A stretch of DNA of 64,000 bases from a virus. The stretch lies in the IMG/VR virus record IMGVR_UViG_3300025018_000100. One strand, given 5' to 3'. Under the pieces are notes generated by a model. That model saw nothing but the letters and a program-made list of their open reading frames with translations. It did not search any database and was not told the origin of the DNA. Below are positions 6,448 through 61,900 of this stretch, in pieces. Position 1 is the stretch's first letter; every line of letters starts with the position of its first letter. Both the position numbers and the translations under genes were made by a program.

Positions 6448-6451
6448 CAAT

Positions 6452-6490
6452 AAAGGCAACTAAGATAATTTTTAGTTGCCTTTTACTTTT
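6452..6490 (+). terminator. Intrinsic terminator overlapping the -35 of the next promoter
   Basis: AAAGGCAACTAA...TTAGTTGCCTTT hairpin followed by T-tract. Confidence 0.75.
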
Positions 6491-6504
6491 TTTGAGATTA
6501 TAAT
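6476..6504 (+). promoter_or_regulatory. Sigma70-type promoter
   Basis: TTGCCT-17 nt-TATAAT. Confidence 0.7.
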
Positions 6505-11648: not shown

Positions 11649-11657
11649 AAATTTAGC

Positions 11658-11686
11658 TTGCTAGAACGGCAAAATTTTAGTATAAT
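11658..11686 (+). promoter_or_regulatory. Sigma70-type promoter
   Basis: TTGCTA-17 nt-TATAAT. Confidence 0.8.
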
Positions 11687-11728
11687 TAAACATATCAGAT
11701 ATTATATATAAAGGAAGAGGAAAAGGGT

Positions 11729-21549: not shown

Positions 21550-22464
21550 ATGGTAAAAAGAGTATCTGAAGATAAAATTTTAATTTCAGATGCAAACGTG
21601 GAAGCACAGGCTCATGAAGAGCCTGTGCTTGACACTGCATCGTCTTCTGAATCTTCTACTCCTGCTATTACAGGAGTAGATGGTAATAAACTACAAATTG
21701 ACGTAAATTACCTACGTAAGTATAATATATTTTTTGCTACCCCTTGTTATGGTGGTATGCTAACAGACCAATATTTTTTGAGCATGTTTAGAACTACACA
21801 AAAGTTAATGCAATTAGGTATTAACTTTAGAATTACTACTTTAAGAAATGAAAGTCTTATTACAAGAGGTAGAAACATATTAAACGCTATGTTTATGGAT
21901 AGTGATTGTACTCATTTAATGTTTATTGATAGTGATATTGAATGGGATCCCGACAGCATAGTTAGGATGTTAGCAATGAATAAGCCAATTATTGCAGGTG
22001 CGTACCCTAAAAAAACAGTTAATTGGGGTAACGTAAAAGAGGCAGCCGCGCGAGGAGAAAAGGATTTAGAAAATTTCCAGGCTGATTATGCTATTAATTT
22101 ACATTTTGCAGATAAAGAAACTAAAAAAGTTGAGTATAAAGATGGAGCTATTAAGGTTCTTGACGCAAGCACTGGATTTTTTATGATAAAACGTGAAGTA
22201 GTTGAAAAAATGATGAAACATTATCCAGAATTGCATTATAAAAATGATAGTCATATTGATCCTAGATTTGATAAGTGGTGTTATAGCTTATTTGATACTA
22301 TGCATGATCCAAAAGATAATAGGTATTTATCAGAAGATTATACATTTTGTAGAAGATGGCAAATGATGGGCGGAGAAATTTGGTTAGACCCACACACTAG
22401 TTTAAATCACGTTGGTAGTTACACATTTCATGGAAACCCTAGTAGAATGTTTAGGAATGCTTAA
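21550..22464 (+). CDS. GT-A fold glycosyltransferase-like protein
   Basis: FATPCYGG, NESLITRGRN, HLMFIDSDI (DxD), GAYPKK, TGFFMIKR, LSEDYTFC. Confidence 0.8.
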   Translation: MVKRVSEDKILISDANVEAQAHEEPVLDTASSSESSTPAITGVDGNKLQIDVNYLRKYNIFFATPCYGGMLTDQYFLSMFRTTQKLMQLGINFRITTLRNESLITRGRNILNAMFMDSDCTHLMFIDSDIEWDPDSIVRMLAMNKPIIAGAYPKKTVNWGNVKEAAARGEKDLENFQADYAINLHFADKETKKVEYKDGAIKVLDASTGFFMIKREVVEKMMKHYPELHYKNDSHIDPRFDKWCYSLFDTMHDPKDNRYLSEDYTFCRRWQMMGGEIWLDPHTSLNHVGSYTFHGNPSRMFRNA

Positions 22465-31674: not shown

Positions 31675-32361
31675 ATGACCCATTTACCTTTACCTACAGA
31701 TAAAGTAGATATTATAAGTTTGTTTGATTTAAGTGGTTTGGCTATAATACCTTTTACAAAGAAAGGGTATAAAACGCTAGTAGTAGATAATCAAGCTACT
31801 GAGTTAAATAGTAGAGCCACTTATACAAGCAACGTTGATATATTAAATTATGAACACGAAATAACTAACTTAGCAAAAACTGCTAAGTTAGTTATTGCTT
31901 TTCCACCCTGTACTGATCTTGCTGTTTCTGGCGCTAAACACTTTAAAAATAAGGCTGCAAAAAATCCAAATTTTCAAAAAGAGGCATTACATCTTTTTAA
32001 GTCAGCTATAAGAATATGCGGAAAAGATACTCCTTATATGATTGAAAACCCTATAGGTGTAGTATCTACAATGTATAGAAAGTACGATTTCAACTTTAAT
32101 CCTTGTGATTATGGTGGTTATTTGCCGGAGGATGATGTACATCCAGAATTTCCTGATTTAATTCCAGCAAGAGATAATTACACTAAAACAACTTGTTTAT
32201 GGACAGGAAATGGATTTATAATACCAGAAAAGAAAAAGTTAAATATATTAAATAAAGGAAACGCCCATTACAATTCGGTTGGCGGTAAAAGCAAAAAAAC
32301 AAAATATATAAGGTCTTTAAGTCCAAGAGGATTTTTTGTAGCCTTAGCGGAGATTTATTAA
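31675..32361 (+). CDS. Phage DNA cytosine-5 methyltransferase (compact Dcm-like)
   Basis: SLFD.SG, FPPCTDLAVSG (catalytic PC), IENP, YTKTTCLW, RSLSPRGF. Confidence 0.8.
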   Translation: MTHLPLPTDKVDIISLFDLSGLAIIPFTKKGYKTLVVDNQATELNSRATYTSNVDILNYEHEITNLAKTAKLVIAFPPCTDLAVSGAKHFKNKAAKNPNFQKEALHLFKSAIRICGKDTPYMIENPIGVVSTMYRKYDFNFNPCDYGGYLPEDDVHPEFPDLIPARDNYTKTTCLWTGNGFIIPEKKKLNILNKGNAHYNSVGGKSKKTKYIRSLSPRGFFVALAEIY

Positions 32362-37335: not shown

Positions 37336-37592
37336 TATATACACTAGGACATACAGAATCTTATAAAAAGATTTTAAAAGAAAATAAGATTGTATTTAAA
37401 GTGGGAAGAGAGATTGACGGAGTAGGTGGAATAGCTTTTAAAAACAAAGAAAATGCTAATAAGTATATTATTGATAATAATAAAAAAACTTGGTCAGTCT
37501 TTGGATTAGATTGTGAATGGGATAATACTTATTACTTAAAAGAAGAAGATAGGTATGCTATAATTAAAGATACAAGGATTATAAAAATATGA
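37320..37592 (+). CDS. Hypothetical protein
   Basis: ORF in tightly packed run. Confidence 0.65.
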   Translation: MVKNMIYTLGHTESYKKILKENKIVFKVGREIDGVGGIAFKNKENANKYIIDNNKKTWSVFGLDCEWDNTYYLKEEDRYAIIKDTRIIKI

Positions 37593-37897
37593 AAATAACA
37601 TTGTGTGGAAGTACTAAATTCAAAGATAAATTTATAGAATTAAATAAATCTTTATCTAAGGAAGGGCATGTAGTTTATAGTGTGTCAAGCTTTGGACATT
37701 CTGGTGATGTTATATCAGATGATGAAAAAATAACCTTAGATTTAGTACATCTAATAAAAATACAAGAAAGTGATGCTATATATGTAATTGATATAGACGG
37801 TTACATAGGTTTTAGCACTAGTCGAGAAATTAAATGGGCTAAAATGTTAAACAAAAATATAATTTATTGGAGCCTAGAAAATGACAAAAAAAATTAG
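37589..37897 (+). CDS. Nucleoside deoxyribosyltransferase-like (flavodoxin-fold) protein
   Basis: ITLCGS.KF, H..KI..SDAIYVID..GYIG.ST..EI. Confidence 0.6.
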   Translation: MKITLCGSTKFKDKFIELNKSLSKEGHVVYSVSSFGHSGDVISDDEKITLDLVHLIKIQESDAIYVIDIDGYIGFSTSREIKWAKMLNKNIIYWSLENDKKN

Positions 37898-41498: not shown

Positions 41499-41527
41499 AT
41501 TATATTAAAAATTAAGCGTAATAGCAA
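41499..41527 (-). promoter_or_regulatory. Sigma70-type promoter
   Basis: TTGCTA-17 nt-TATAAT on the - strand. Confidence 0.75.
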
Positions 41528-41530
41528 ATA

Positions 41531-54611: not shown

Positions 54612-55023
54612 AGTGTCTATAACATCCTATTAATATTTTTATATCATCTTCATTAAGTAATTTAAAAGTTGCGTATCCGTTAAAAGGTAAATGAATATAA
54701 GTACCTGCTTCAATATACATTCCAAAATGAACATGTCTCATATTTTTAGTTCTAAATATAAGAATATCATATTCTTGGATGTCTCGCAAATTAATTTTTT
54801 TCCAATTATTTATTTCGTTAATTATAGTTTCATAAGGTACAATTTGATACCATTTTGCATCAATATTAGTAACACCATCAGTACCTGCTCTACTTAAACA
54901 TTCTTTTAAATCTATATTTAGAAATCTATTATATATGTCAACAATTAAGGTTACGCAATTCATCCCCTGCCATTCATGTTTTATCTTAATGTAATGTTCA
55001 TATTTTTTTAAACCAGTGCTCAT
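54598..55023 (-). CDS. NlpC/P60 peptidase, copy 1
   Basis: GMNCVTLI ... YDILIF ... HFGMYI..G.YIH. Confidence 0.8.
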   Translation of the reverse strand: MSTGLKKYEHYIKIKHEWQGMNCVTLIVDIYNRFLNIDLKECLSRAGTDGVTNIDAKWYQIVPYETIINEINNWKKINLRDIQEYDILIFRTKNMRHVHFGMYIEAGTYIHLPFNGYATFKLLNEDDIKILIGCYRHYDLV

Positions 55024-56179
55024 AATAAGGAAAAACCTCTATAAAATTTTCATTTCTTATACTATCTAATTTATCTGTATAATTTTTAAATTTAGATAGA
55101 AGATGACTATTATCTTGATTGTTCATAAATTTTAACCATACTAATATATGATTAACCTCATTTAAATGTAATCTTTTATCGATAGATAAATATTCTTTAT
55201 ATTTTTTATTTATAATTCTCTTTTCTTCAATAGGTAAACATTGAATGCTTAAATAGTTAGGAAAATATAATAAAGTGCCGTTAAAAAATATATCGTGAGT
55301 TTTGCACCAGTCGATCAACCTTAGCATACTATGTATGCTGTATATGTTAATAACACTACTAATTGTAGTTATATATTGTTTAACTTCCAAGCAATTAGCT
55401 TCAAACTGATCCCAGTTTAGTCCTTTTCTACTATATTCTGCTTCTTTGCCCATACCGTCCATACTAGGCCATAATTCAACTTCGTTGAAGTGGCTCCATA
55501 GTTCAGGTAAATCATATTCTTTATAGCGAAGTACACTAAGATTAGTATTATATGTAAGTCTAAGATTGGTATATCCATTACTAATTAAATATTCTAGTAA
55601 TTCATAATGTTCATCCATCATTAGCGGCTCTCCGCCCGCAAAATAAATTTCTTCTACATTATCTATAAATGTCGGAATGTCGTCCCACAAAGCTGGTTTA
55701 TTCCAATTTTTATGAGGACCTTTGAAATTTGTTTTACCAGTTAATTTCTGCCAATCATTATACCATTTAGTACTACTTTCAGGCCCGCACATTCTACACC
55801 TAAAATTGCAAACATTACTGAATCTAATATCAAAATAAGAAATGGGCACATCTACACTACCGTCAGGGTTAGTTTTATCCCAAAGGTCATGTTTATGTAC
55901 CCATTTTTTATTTTGATCGGTTCTGAAACTAGTCCCGCGTTGAGCCGCTTCGCGGCTATGGCAGGTTAAATAACATTCTCTAGGTATCTCATTATTAATA
56001 TATTGACTTCTAATGTGTTTCATTGGATTGCCATTCCAAACAGCATTATAGCTATCTTCACTAGTACCTAATTCTGTTTTTTCTTTTTGGTTCTGCAAGT
56101 AACAACAAAGTCTATATTTACCTTCTACATCTCCGTGTATATGTATCCAAGGAAGGATACATTTGTTATTATCAGTCAT
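54998..56179 (-). CDS. Radical SAM enzyme with N-terminal twitch domain
   Basis: CILPW..RLCC..C.TC; CNFRCRMC; FAGGEP; YNTN; SMDG; ATG 56179 follows a GAGGGG SD. Confidence 0.92.
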   Translation of the reverse strand: MTDNNKCILPWIHIHGDVEGKYRLCCYLQNQKEKTELGTSEDSYNAVWNGNPMKHIRSQYINNEIPRECYLTCHSREAAQRGTSFRTDQNKKWVHKHDLWDKTNPDGSVDVPISYFDIRFSNVCNFRCRMCGPESSTKWYNDWQKLTGKTNFKGPHKNWNKPALWDDIPTFIDNVEEIYFAGGEPLMMDEHYELLEYLISNGYTNLRLTYNTNLSVLRYKEYDLPELWSHFNEVELWPSMDGMGKEAEYSRKGLNWDQFEANCLEVKQYITTISSVINIYSIHSMLRLIDWCKTHDIFFNGTLLYFPNYLSIQCLPIEEKRIINKKYKEYLSIDKRLHLNEVNHILVWLKFMNNQDNSHLLSKFKNYTDKLDSIRNENFIEVFPYYEHWFKKI

Positions 56180-56218
56180 TATTCCCCTCAAAATTTAAAT
56201 ACAATTATGACGTTTTAT

Positions 56219-56360
56219 AAAAAATAGCAAACTTCGTTTGTAAATTTATTGAATTAAAATTACGTATGTCCCAAATGGGCTACACGAGCCGTGCTAGCAT
56301 AACGTAAGACAATATAATTTTATTATGATAATTCAATAATAATAAAACTACGTTTTACAT
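56219..56360 (-). ncRNA. Candidate structured small RNA or attenuator leader (~140 nt)
   Basis: Upstream promoter, nested inverted repeats and 3' hairpin plus U-tract (see findings). Confidence 0.5.
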
Positions 56361-56365
56361 AAATA

Positions 56366-56394
56366 ATTGTATCATAATTTTTAATAATTGTCAA
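56366..56394 (-). promoter_or_regulatory. Sigma70 promoter with extended -10
   Basis: TTGACA-17 nt-TACAAT, with TGn immediately before the -10. Confidence 0.8.
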
Positions 56395-56423
56395 GTGTAT
56401 CTAGCAATTTTATTTTTTATATT

Positions 56424-57917
56424 TTACCTAGGGATAGTTCTACCAGTTCCTGGGAAGCCTCCGAAATGAATATTGTTATTTCTAAGAGTACATGCTTCAA
56501 AGTTTTTAGCACAAACATCTTCTTGTACAGTAAGTACTTCTGCATTATTAATATCAAAGTATCCATTAGCTGTACGATTTTGTGTATCTCCTGGAATTAA
56601 ATCAGAACCATTATCAGGATATTGACATTCGGGACCTTTATATGACCAAGGACAGCTATTCTTAAAATACTTTCTTTTTGGCAGCTGTAGTTTGAAATAT
56701 TGAAGCCAACTTACTACTGCGAATACTGCAACAATCGGATTTAAAGTATCTAAACTATCAATTTTAAAGTTATCAACTACGAAACCGTCTTGGTCAGCTT
56801 CTTCATTTACGATGTACAGCTTATCCCCAGCTTTTACGTTTGGAACTTCTGTATCGGTGATTAAGTTATCTCCGAACATATTAATAATCTGATAAGTTTC
56901 TTGATTAGAATTACTACGTACTATGTCGCCAATTCTATAAGGAAGTGTAGATGCTACAGTAATAAGATTAGGAGTAGTTTCTCTAACAATGCTATATTCA
57001 GGCCATACGTCAAGAAAGTTAGCGTAAGTACTTTTAATTTCGATTACTCCGCCTAGTAAGTCTCTAGTATCAATTTTTAGTTTATTCCAAGTATCTCCAA
57101 GACTAATAGTTGTATCATAATCAAAAGCGACGTTGTATCCGCCTCTGCTAGCTGCTATATTTTCATCAAAGTCTGGATGTTCTGGATTAGTACGTGGATC
57201 AATATTGGTAACATATTCACCATTAACAATAGCCGTATTACTATTACTGCTATTATTTCCTACAAGAAAAGGGTTTTCTACAAGAGTAGTAATTAGATTA
57301 TCAAAGTTACTAATAGTAATCTGAATTTCATTTACTTGCCCACTACTGTCTATACCAATATCACCACTTTCGATAGGGTAAGGAAGAAAACTTTCTCCAC
57401 CAAATAAACATTCATACTGAATATCACTAGCTGTTTCACCCCTAATCTCGGCAAATCTGAAAGGTAAACCATCGGGCCAAGGATATCCTGTACCCTCTCC
57501 TGTAGGATTTCCTGCTTGATTTGGTGGGTACCATTCTCCTGGGTAGTATAAAGTGTAAAGTCTAACTGAGGGTCTTTGAACAAAAGCGTTCTTTTCCCTA
57601 ATAAAATTACTATTTTGAATGTTAGTTATCTCACAACTACTAACAACAGTGGTTGCATTATAACTAGGCTCAAAATAGGGTTGTTGATTGATATCGACAC
57701 TTCCACCACTTGTAGTAATAAAAGTAGTATTGCAGGTTTCTGCAATATTATACTCTTGTAGTACGTTATCTACTTTAACCTTAATAGTGTTATTCTCAGG
57801 ATTAACGTTAGCAATAAATCCTTCAGTACCGCTTGTGATACCAATAATATTGTTACCTTGTGTAAATCCTACAGTGCTATTAACTGTTAAAATGTAATCG
57901 TATGTACGTGTTGTCAT
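56424..57917 (-). CDS. Minor tail protein L-like (Fe-S cluster Cys motif), extended
   Basis: PYPIE, ITISN, LPKR..CPWSYKGPECQY..DVCAK..AC..R..HFGGFPG. Confidence 0.85.
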   Translation of the reverse strand: MTTRTYDYILTVNSTVGFTQGNNIIGITSGTEGFIANVNPENNTIKVKVDNVLQEYNIAETCNTTFITTSGGSVDINQQPYFEPSYNATTVVSSCEITNIQNSNFIREKNAFVQRPSVRLYTLYYPGEWYPPNQAGNPTGEGTGYPWPDGLPFRFAEIRGETASDIQYECLFGGESFLPYPIESGDIGIDSSGQVNEIQITISNFDNLITTLVENPFLVGNNSSNSNTAIVNGEYVTNIDPRTNPEHPDFDENIAASRGGYNVAFDYDTTISLGDTWNKLKIDTRDLLGGVIEIKSTYANFLDVWPEYSIVRETTPNLITVASTLPYRIGDIVRSNSNQETYQIINMFGDNLITDTEVPNVKAGDKLYIVNEEADQDGFVVDNFKIDSLDTLNPIVAVFAVVSWLQYFKLQLPKRKYFKNSCPWSYKGPECQYPDNGSDLIPGDTQNRTANGYFDINNAEVLTVQEDVCAKNFEACTLRNNNIHFGGFPGTGRTIPR

Positions 57918-58867: not shown

Positions 58868-58881
58868 TTTTTATTTCCTCT

Positions 58882-58977
58882 TAATTAATCTTTGTACGTT
58901 CTTACCAGCAACAAATTCTCTTATTAATTTATCAATATGATGAAATTTTTTATTACTGGAAGAACGTACATTAATTA
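58882..58977 (-). promoter_or_regulatory. Long intergenic RNA hairpin
   Basis: TGTACGTTCTT/AAGAACGTACA, CCAG/CTGG and TAATAAA/TTTGTTG arms. Confidence 0.65.
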
Positions 58978-58979
58978 TA

Positions 58980-61900
58980 TTACACACTTCTAAGTCCTTT
59001 TCTAATTGGTCCGTTATTTCTGAAATCTTTTAATACTACATCAATAACAAACTGTTTACCGTCAAAACTTACCTGAGGTTGACCATCAGTTTGTTGGGCT
59101 GTGCCATTGTTAACAATATTAACTTTAACATCAGGCTGTCCACCAGAACCCCCTCTATTCATATTTCTTAAATTATTAAGACCTATATCTTGAGAAGCTC
59201 TCTTGTTCATAACAAACTCGCCTGGCTCTAACATTGCAGGCACACTATCTCTTAATAGATTTGGACCTCCAGCAGCCATATATCTAACAGGACCCCCTGC
59301 CGCCATGGTTCTACCATCTAAGATTCCATACTGAGCAACGGATAAAGCACTACTAGTTCCTACGTTACTACCAGCAGTAAATCCAGCACCTCCGCCAAAC
59401 ATACTACTTATTCCAGTACCAATAAGCCCTAGGATACTACCAAAACCGCTACTAGAACCGCCAGAACTTCCTAAAGCACTAGATAAGCTACTACCTAAAA
59501 AGTCAAATACTTTTGTGGCTGTGTTACCAAACGAACTTAATCCTCTTGATAAAAGTCCGTTTTCTCCAAAAACACTATCAAAAAATCCAGTAGTTTGTTC
59601 TTTGTTTTTATTAATAGTTTCTGTAACAGCTTTATCTGAATTTTCCGCCGCACTAAGTACTTCGGATTTTATAGATTTACTAGCACCTAAGCTAACATCA
59701 GAAGTGTATAAGGGGAGGTCACGAGAGTTACCTCTCTCTTCGCTCCCAAAAAGATCACCAAAAACACTACCAATCATATCTTCAACAGGTTTTACAATAA
59801 GTCTATCCGTAACTTTTTCTCTTATACCATCTAAGATACCTACGAATAAATCTCTTGCACCTTCTTTAAAGTTGTCCATAGTAAGGGTACCATCAAAATA
59901 AGCCTTGCTTAAATCCTGAATACCTGTTCCAATTTTATTTTTAAGAACTGAACTAATATCGTCAGATAGTAATCTAAGGGCGTCTCCTTGCTCCCTTAAA
60001 TTACTCATGGTTAAACTATGATTAGAATTTGCTTTTATTTGTTCATTTTCTAACTGAGTTATAGTATTTTTAAATTCTTCTTCGTTTATCCCTATTTCTT
60101 TTCTTTTATTATCTATCTTAATTTGTAATGCTGCGAGTTCTGCGGCATTTTCTCTGTTAAGATTTGATATCTTAATGTCGTTTAATTCTGCTTGTAATTT
60201 AGCTAATTCTCCTATATCAAGAATTTCATCTTGTATAGCTCTAGCTTTAAGAGACCTTAATTTGTCCTGAGTATTAGCTTCTTGTGTGGCTGCGTCTGCT
60301 TGAGTAGCTGCTAAGTCCTTAGTAGCATTAATAGTACTATCTAATTGTTCAATAGAAGTTTTAATAGAAGAATTTAGTGAATCAATTTGTTCATCAAAAT
60401 TAGCTACACTAATCAAACTAGGATTACTAGTTCCGTAGAATCCTGCTAATGTTTTAATAAATTCATTGAATATTCTAGCCAATTCAATAGGAAATTGAGT
60501 TAATGCTTGTATTTCTTTCTGAACAGTCAATAATCTGGTTTTTTCTAATTCTAATGCAGCTAATTTATTAGTTTTATTAATATCAATTTCTTGTTTTTTT
60601 ATAGCTAATTCTGCGTCTGCTCTTATTTTTTCTTGATCTAATATATCTAATCTATTAATTAAATTTTTCTGTTCATTAATGCTTTTCTGCTCAGAAATTT
60701 GCTTCTCTCTTAATAAAAGAGCAGCTTTCTGGCTATTATCTTTAGCTTTAAAAGTTTTTTCCGCTTCTAAATTATCTATCTCTAGATTAATAATCCTAGA
60801 TTCATTATCAAATTTTTTCTTTTCTGCTTCTATACGAAGATTAATTAGATTTAATTCTTTTTCTAAGTTACTAGCTGCTTGTTCTGCTATTAAATTTCTT
60901 CTATCTTCCCTAGTACCAAAATTAGGAAAATTAGCTTGATTATCAGCAGTTCTCTGTAATCGTAAGTCTCTTAATAATGCAGCACGTTCTATTGCTAGTT
61001 CTTTTCCCTTTAGTTCTGTATCTAATAGTTTATTAGCTAAATTTAATTCTTCAACTTTATTTTCGTTTATTTGTTGTTGTTTTTTAAATTTAATATTTTG
61101 AGTTTCATTATATGCCTTGCTTATATCTAAAAGAGCATTTTCTTTAGTTAGTAGAGCTTCTAAAGCTTTATTTCTATTATCATAAGCTTCTTGAGATAAT
61201 AAAATATTATTAGATAATTTTTGAATTTCTAATTTTTGCTTTTCAATATCTAATTGTTGTAAAGACTCCCTTAGTCTTTTTTCTTCAGCTATTGCAATTT
61301 TTTGTATTTCTTCTTTTGATTTTAGGAAAGCACCAAATAAAGCCTTTTCCGTAGTTTTTCGGAGATTTCCTAAGGCTACAATCTTAGCATTTTGTTCTAA
61401 ATCTTTTTCTCCTCGACTAGCAGCTTCTTTTTGTAAAGCAGCGAGTTCTATTGATCCTTGTTTTGCTATATTAATAGCAGTTACTAAATTTTCTGCTTTG
61501 TTAGCAGCTATTTCAATACCATTTTCTGCAAATTTACCATTAAATAAGTTAATTATCCCAGAAGATTCTAAGTTATCTACTAAACTTATTTGGCTAGAAA
61601 AAGCTTTAGTAATATTTACAGATAATTGCTCAATAGCTTGAAGCTCTTGGGTTATTTTTCTTGCTTCTTTTCCTTGATCTTTAAGTCTATTTATAATAGC
61701 AACTAATTTAGGGTCTAACTCACCATATTCGTTAGTGTAGGCTTCTTGTAATTTAACTAATTCACTAGTGATAGTAGTTATTGCTGTAAGTTTTTGTGCT
61801 GCCTTCTCTGCATCAAGAGAACCTGAAGCAAAAGAATCAGAGAAACTTTTACTTGCGTTTATGCTTTTACCTAACTCAGAAACTAAATTACCTACACCCG

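Follow-up and report, generated by a model that had tools for sequence, protein, structure and literature searches.

The 244-nt spacer that separates tail gene L from a SPASM/radical SAM gene in the phage record IMGVR_UViG_3300025018_000100 was found to carry a very good match to a sigma70-type promoter, to contain a hairpin more stable than its shuffled counterparts, and to be absent from related phages. The analysis covered the whole stretch of 64,000 nt (the window). As judged by comparison with related loci, the spacer is most likely a private insert of one phage lineage and not a conserved riboswitch or a known RNA family. Tentatively, it is read as a sigma70-type promoter internal to the tail operon, from which the tail-tip genes would receive a structured 5' leader with a cis-acting hairpin; that the promoter fires, that transcription reads through and that the hairpin has a role is what we infer from these features. 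The sequence-only reading had proposed either an independent sRNA or a riboswitch- or attenuator-like leader controlling the radical SAM-K-I-J genes. Its promoter-led structured leader is favoured here as well, and its riboswitch or attenuator component was not supported.

According to the favoured reading, the private non-coding insert would add an internal sigma70-type promoter to a long tail operon, and the downstream genes (radical SAM, two NlpC/P60 K-like genes, JAB, I and J) would get a structured 5' leader of ~180 nt. Transcription would start near 56358-56360, and most RNA polymerase would pass the feeble CAAAC/GTTTG-U6 signal and continue into the radical SAM gene. In the resulting RNA, the 94-nt hairpin (56339-56246) would act in cis, most likely by affecting stability or processing, in the manner of the elements that RNase III-type double-strand nucleases cut in polycistronic phage mRNAs; the same role would fall to a much stronger hairpin located between the tape-measure gene and gene M.

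The spacer and its surroundings

The non-coding spacer extends over positions 56180-56423 on the minus strand, is flanked by the stop codon of L (56424-56426) and by the radical SAM start codon (ATG at 56179), and has a GC content of 0.23. Relatives of the radical SAM protein align from residues 1-7 of the ATG-started product. On the 3' side of this gene lie two NlpC/P60 (K-like) genes, a JAB gene, and then I and J. The features of the region are listed in Table 1. Every motif string named in the sequence-only reading was found in place.

Table 1. Features of the spacer and of the neighbouring tail operon.
Feature	Position	Strand	Basis
Second hairpin, ~42 bp, near-perfect RNA hairpin; fills the spacer between the tape-measure stop and the RBS of gene M	58875..58982	-	
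Tail gene L	56424-57917	-	Pfam Phage_tail_L, 1.5e-22
Predicted sigma70-type promoter TTGACA-17-TACAAT, TG at extended -10	56366..56394 (TTGACA 56394-56389; TACAAT 56371-56366)	-	consensus scan
Small AU-rich 5' hairpin GTAAAAC-GTA-GTTTTAT	56342..56358 (arms 56358-52/56348-42)	-	present as sequence
Rod-like imperfect 94-nt hairpin, closed by the perfect 11-bp stem TTATTGAATTA/TAATTCAATAA	56246..56339 (arms 56339-29/56256-46)	-	fold and ensemble
GC-rich apical hairpin CTAGCACG-GCT-CGTGTAG	56280..56297	-	P 0.8-0.9
Terminator-like signal CAAAC-GAA-GTTTG, then CTATTTTTT; stem string CAAACGAAGTTTG at 56240-28, T-run to 56219	56219..56240	-	weak
RBS GAGGGG of the radical SAM gene	56189-56184	-	sequence reading
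Radical SAM gene, 393 aa	54998-56179 (ATG 56179-56177)	-	N-terminal SPASM-like domain and radical SAM domain

The stretch was found to be non-coding: scanning of six frames gave no ORF with a start codon in the spacer, and ARAGORN detected no tRNA, either in the window at default settings or in the spacer with the threshold relaxed to 50%. The GC content lies within the range of the other spacers of this phage (0.19-0.35) and is not foreign-looking.

The L junction in related phages

Relatives were collected by L protein as the best 80 of 252 matches in IMG/VR and the best 80 of 220 in metagenomes, with identities of 42-56%. The 3' end of L was present in 155 of the resulting loci. In 150 of these, the next homologous gene started at most 45 nt after L; this count was homology-based, and the 150 loci contained 99 distinct junction sequences. 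The gene directly after L was the radical SAM gene in 113 loci, K1 in 31 and K2 in 6. Apparent gaps of 26-48 nt in a few loci were explained by longer N-termini of the radical SAM protein. Three of the remaining loci ran off the contig, one (L151) had another gene abutting L, and L146 alone had a spacer. The L 3' ends of the relatives were not enriched in promoters (mean best score of 7.9 against a background of 8.2; 98 distinct ends). Since the spacer was absent from 150 of 155 relatives and their L ends showed no promoter enrichment, any function of the spacer should be dispensable.

The exceptional locus L146, a metagenomic relative, contains a spacer of ~85 nt with the promoter match TAGACA-17-TATAAT (11/12) at the L junction, a case from another lineage that counts in favour of the internal-promoter reading. 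In place of the radical SAM gene, it carries a 208-aa ORF (L146:4579-5292) that matched PHROG endonuclease VII (1.7e-19) and had no Pfam match. This ORF looks like a free-standing nuclease inserted at the L junction, which marks the junction as insertion-prone.

It is possible, although somewhat unlikely, that the spacer is a neutral scar, that is, decayed DNA left by an insertion at a recombination-prone junction, for example, by a lost free-standing nuclease cassette or a palindromic mobile element, in which the promoter and the hairpin have no current role. The restriction of the spacer to one lineage, with abutting genes in 150 of 155 relatives, agrees with such an origin, as does the clade-dependent gene content after L. 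Moreover, L146 demonstrates that selfish DNA bearing a promoter and an endonuclease VII-like ORF does land at this junction. However, no remnant of the L146 ORF was found in the window spacer (best tblastn E 1.6; blastn gave only short AT words), and no target-site duplication was seen by eye.

The age of the radical SAM gene at this position was inferred from FastTree phylogenies of L and of the radical SAM protein, which have long branches and carry moderate weight. In the L tree, the window sits with loci that have no radical SAM gene (the L003-L018 type and L089), and the next outgroups, L144 and L129/131, carry it. In the radical SAM tree, the window groups with L144 and L129/130. Because the two trees are congruent for the radical SAM-bearing loci nearest to the window, the radical SAM gene appears to be old at this position and to have been lost in the sister clade, and the spacer appears to be a later non-coding insertion. 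Acquisition of the radical SAM gene together with the spacer, as a moron consisting of promoter and gene, was rejected on the strength of this agreement.

A radical SAM gene with a SPASM-like N-terminus lies between L and K in 113 of the 155 related uncultured phage loci (within L019-L162); the clade that is nearest to the window in the L comparison appears to have lost it. The IMG/VR locus L001 contains five tandem SPASM/radical SAM paralogues (L001:770-7204) with 24-32% identity to the protein of the window.

The predicted promoter

The promoter claimed in the sequence-only reading was recovered by the consensus scan. The site TTGACA-17-TACAAT is a very good sigma70-type match that scored 11/12 with an additional TG, and it ranked first among 45 promoter-like sites in the 50-64 kb part of the window, a region that overall contained fewer such sites than its shuffles. 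It agrees with the sigma70 pattern (-35 TTGACA, -10 TATAAT, spacer of 16-18 nt) and is regarded as a predicted promoter; its spacing places the predicted transcription start at ~56358-56360. Exact matches to TTGACA-N16-18-TANAAT occurred three times in the window, compared with 0.32 expected, and ten sites on both strands of the window scored at least 11/12. When the spacer itself was shuffled, a score of at least 11/12 was reached in 131 of 5000 shuffles (2.6%). The other true spacers of this phage contain sigma70-like promoters and canonical terminators, which indicates that the phage uses host-type signals.

Predicted fold of the spacer RNA

The 94-nt core of the spacer RNA had a minimum free energy (MFE) of -22.6 kcal/mol, while its shuffles gave -13.0 ± 2.9 kcal/mol (z -3.3), and none of 500 shuffles reached the native value. 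Two RNAs started at the promoter, of 142 and 191 nt, were examined as Boltzmann ensembles. In these ensembles, the outer 11-bp stem formed with P 0.87-0.94, and the apical hairpin, CUAGCACG-GCU-CGUGUAG in RNA letters, formed with P 0.8-0.9 for both of its parts (CACG/CGTG and CTA/TAG). The predicted structure is a rod: an 8-nt bulge separates a 10-bp helix from a second helix of 7 bp, and an internal loop leads on to a third helix, also of 7 bp, which includes two G-U pairs and is capped by the apical hairpin.

In the sequence-only reading, the 11-bp stem enclosed a three-way junction of which the apical hairpin was a part. The 11-bp stem and the apical hairpin were reproduced, whereas the stems of the junction were not: in the 142- and 191-nt RNAs, TTACGT/ACGTAA (56307-02/56265-60) and ATG/CAT each had P of at most 0.01, and CCC/GGG had P 0.05-0.13. 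The full structure proposed earlier had an energy of -22.1 kcal/mol compared with an MFE of -27.6 kcal/mol. The small 5' hairpin, although present as sequence, had P 0.03-0.09 in the same RNAs, a predicted occupancy below 0.1, and reached 0.85 only in a 401-nt read-through fold. An alternative pairing of TGTAAA with TTTACA, which had also been suggested, had P 0. Thus, the promoter and the long hairpin are real as sequence features; the three-way junction is unsupported by the folding model, which predicts a rod instead. An attractive junction drawn by hand in DNA of 23% GC may differ from the predicted fold.

The excess stability depended on the length of RNA considered. For the whole 144-nt RNA, z was -2.3, and the 191-nt leader up to the start codon had an ordinary stability (z -1.3). 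In the 401-nt read-through fold, P of the long stem fell to 0.12, although folds of that length are less reliable. Taken alone, the perfect 11-bp inverted repeat was found in 227 of 3000 shuffles of the 23% GC spacer (7.6%). Single features are thus not very rare in such DNA, which is in keeping with a decayed scar. The combination of a near-perfect promoter, a stable hairpin and an intact RBS, in the right order and on the right strand, nevertheless exceeds what would be expected of one.

The antisense strand was also found to fold (z -2.5). Both strands fold and the perfect 11-bp arms are Watson-Crick paired on either strand, as would be expected if the inverted repeats acted at the DNA level, as a protein-binding or cruciform site such as an operator overlapping the internal promoter. 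This explanation is nonetheless considered very improbable. The arms are separated by 72 bp and lie downstream of the promoter, and G-U pairs, which can form only in the sense RNA, contribute to the inner helix that is predicted as best; the sense form of the 94-nt core was 3.8 kcal/mol more stable than the antisense form and contained four G-U pairs against one. Only ~10 of 19 positions matched the E. coli Fur-box consensus by eye, and no LexA-type box GTTC-N7-GTTC was found in the spacer.

The terminator-like signal

The spacer had been described as bounded by a terminator, and this boundary could not be upheld. The stem of the putative terminator consists of 5 bp with two G-C pairs and has a stability of -1.8 kcal/mol, approximately ten times weaker than the clear hairpin-plus-T-run terminators of the window (-17.6, -21.0 and -19.2 kcal/mol, near 6448, 9290 and 37165, respectively). 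The consensus terminator scan listed no terminator in the spacer. Compared with an intrinsic terminator, which combines a stable G+C-rich hairpin with a U-run, the signal has the U-run and lacks such a hairpin. The hairpin formed with P 0.09-0.5, with the value of 0.09 obtained for the 142-nt RNA. Given the stem energy of -1.8 kcal/mol and the absence of a call by the scan, read-through into the radical SAM gene is expected.

Perfect hairpins of 12 bp and 16 bp were also observed elsewhere in the window, at 21602-21630 and 31860-31896 on the plus strand (-25.7 and -20.3 kcal/mol, respectively). They lie inside the ORFs 21550-22464 and 31675-32361 and are not followed by a T-run.

The weakness of this signal bears on the proposal of an independent sRNA gene, an 'RNA moron' whose ~140-nt transcript would end at the U-run 56219-56224 and act in trans. 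The promoter, the hairpin and the U6 tract do follow each other in this order in DNA that has no ORF, and, in the manner of morons, this DNA is an insertion that separates genes which are neighbours in relatives. Furthermore, RNA positions 103-120 are complementary at 17 of 18 positions to a plus-strand gene (37589-37897) at 37627-37644 (E 0.026 within the window). This E value is borderline in AT-rich DNA, the complementarity is probably due to chance, and the stretch concerned is sequestered as the 3' arm of the main stem. In addition, the terminator stem falls below the criteria of the scan, no conservation was found, and the GC content of the spacer does not look foreign. A terminator-bounded sRNA, as described earlier, was accordingly judged unlikely.

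Search for homologues and known RNA families

The earlier statement that the element is not a recognised family was upheld by a search of Rfam. No match was obtained in the whole window at the gathering threshold; at E of at most 10, the region 56100-56500 gave three weak matches, all of which were outside the hairpin core and none of which was to a riboswitch family. A blastn search of positions 54900-57000 against 50,697 phage records gave no match, and tblastn searches of L and the radical SAM protein against phage records gave only remote relatives; therefore, the window has no close cultured phage among these records.

No similarity to the spacer was found by BLAST among the related loci, and no second copy was found in the 64-kb window or in 161 related loci. 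A single-sequence covariance model of the structure proposed earlier, searched against the window and 161 loci (L002 and L163-L174 were left out), matched only itself; the next best match had 19 bits and an E of 2. Scanning for the GC-core motif gave one chance match in IMG/VR, which falls within an ORF of 1500 aa in GC-rich DNA, and three chance matches in GC-rich MAGs among 185,579 species genomes (GTDB). A scan for a second core string gave no match. The pair of 11-bp arms occurred in nine IMG/VR loci, which were AT-rich and had unrelated interiors. With regard to MITEs and palindromic elements, the spacer has 11-bp arms, and neither another copy nor, by eye, a target-site duplication was found. 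The lack of a second copy and the unrelated interiors of the arm-sharing loci speak against the spacer being a scar of a mobile element.

No variants of the spacer were found; of four public DNA contig sets that contain the phage, one is the probable source and three contained identical low-depth pieces across the spacer. No RNA run was listed with the sequence. With one sequence and no homologue, covariation or strain variants in the searched data, the element is a singleton, and selection on the structure is unproven.

These searches also bear on the idea of a riboswitch or ligand-sensing attenuator, in which the junction would bind SAM or a metal and set the read-through into the radical SAM gene. 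The element does precede the gene of a cofactor-dependent enzyme, and promoter, structure, U-run and RBS are in the appropriate order. However, no family matched even at a permissive threshold, no second example was found in anything searched, and neither the junction nor the antiterminator pairing belongs to the predicted fold (P of at most 0.13 and P 0, respectively). The orthologous radical SAM gene lies directly behind L, with no leader, in 113 related loci, and the congruence of the two trees points to an old gene and a new leader. A riboswitch is thus hardly credible.

A second hairpin in the tail operon

The minus-strand tail operon has one other spacer, of 112 nt, which extends from the stop codon of the tape-measure gene (58980-58982) to gene M (58867). 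It was found to contain a hairpin that is statistically stronger than that of the L spacer (z -9.1 versus -3.3), with an MFE of -34.6 kcal/mol that was reached by none of 200 shuffles. The antisense strand gave -23.2 kcal/mol, a difference of 11 kcal/mol, and the sense fold contains four G-U pairs. Among 117 related loci, which represent 77 distinct junctions, none had a spacer of more than 53 nt at the tape-measure/M junction. A motif scan with the arms of this hairpin gave no match, and the two inserts share only short AT words.

That one operon has two private hairpins on its sense strand, both at boundaries between cistrons, points to action at the RNA level on the polycistronic message. 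If the promoter and the hairpin of the L spacer work as the favoured reading suggests, the tail-tip genes would have become uncoupled, in one lineage of an uncultured phage group, from an operon that has no gaps in ~150 relatives, and the means would have been inserted non-coding RNA elements; the comparison with these relatives is clean. As it stands, the case is a single unconserved instance of common parts, a promoter and a leader hairpin, and it opens no long-standing question.

Comparison with known phage elements

The RNase III sites of T7 early and late mRNAs are conserved among T7 relatives. Like these sites, the hairpin of the L spacer is a long imperfect sense-strand hairpin in an intercistronic phage spacer, just upstream of the next RBS. 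Unlike them, it has no sequence relation to T7 sites, and both hairpins of the tail operon are private to one genome. In PMC3867540, the ideal substrate of RNase III is given as ~22 bp, and the polycistronic precursor of T7 is described as having five processing signals; according to the same source, single-strand cuts leave 3' hairpins that act as stability determinants. The stacked helices of the tail operon hairpins amount to about two turns, with 10+7+7 bp in the spacer hairpin and ~42 bp in that at 58875-58982; in the spacer hairpin, this length would suffice for a substrate, although the 8-nt bulge and internal loops interrupt it.

The put sites of HK022 are promoter-proximal, cis-acting antitermination RNAs with two defined stem-loops that are conserved between putL and putR. 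The spacer RNA resembles them in that it is structured, follows a promoter directly and stands first in a long operon; it differs from them in that it has no Rfam match. It is quite improbable that the spacer encodes a newly arisen functional regulatory RNA, either a gene-less 'RNA moron' sRNA acting in trans or a put-like element that would act in cis and modify RNA polymerase molecules started at the internal promoter. If it did, the phage would, together with the hairpin at 58875-58982, be re-segmenting a translationally coupled tail operon by RNA structures arisen de novo.

Lambdoid morons, as described in PMC3594210, carry a gene for a protein and a true terminator, and their GC content is often deviant. 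The spacer shares with them the position of extra DNA between tail operon genes that abut in relatives (150 of 155 loci) and a sigma70-type promoter of its own. Unlike them, it contains no ORF and thus no gene of its own, its terminator is feeble, its GC content is ordinary for a spacer, and the radical SAM gene that follows it appears to be ancestral there.

As presented in PMC4122927, PeSLs of T4-type phages have a stem-loop just upstream of a promoter, and each genome contains many of them, most of which lie outside structural modules. The spacer shares with PeSLs its intergenic position and its make-up: a near-consensus sigma70 promoter, a stem-loop and an AT-rich tract, together with a start codon preceded by a Shine-Dalgarno sequence. 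In the spacer, however, the stem-loop is downstream of the promoter, is present in a single copy in the 64-kb window and lies inside the tail module. A PeSL cassette of the kind presented there was ruled out by the downstream stem-loop and the absence of a second copy in the window.

Composites of a terminator followed by a promoter were observed in spacers of the plus-strand gene block, at 6448-6500, 11649-11728 (+) and 41500-41530 (-). Their promoters consist of TTGCCT or TTGCTA, a 17-nt spacer and TATAAT. In the composite at 6448-6500, the 3' arm of the terminator contains the -35 element, which resembles the arrangement in PeSLs of T4-type phages.
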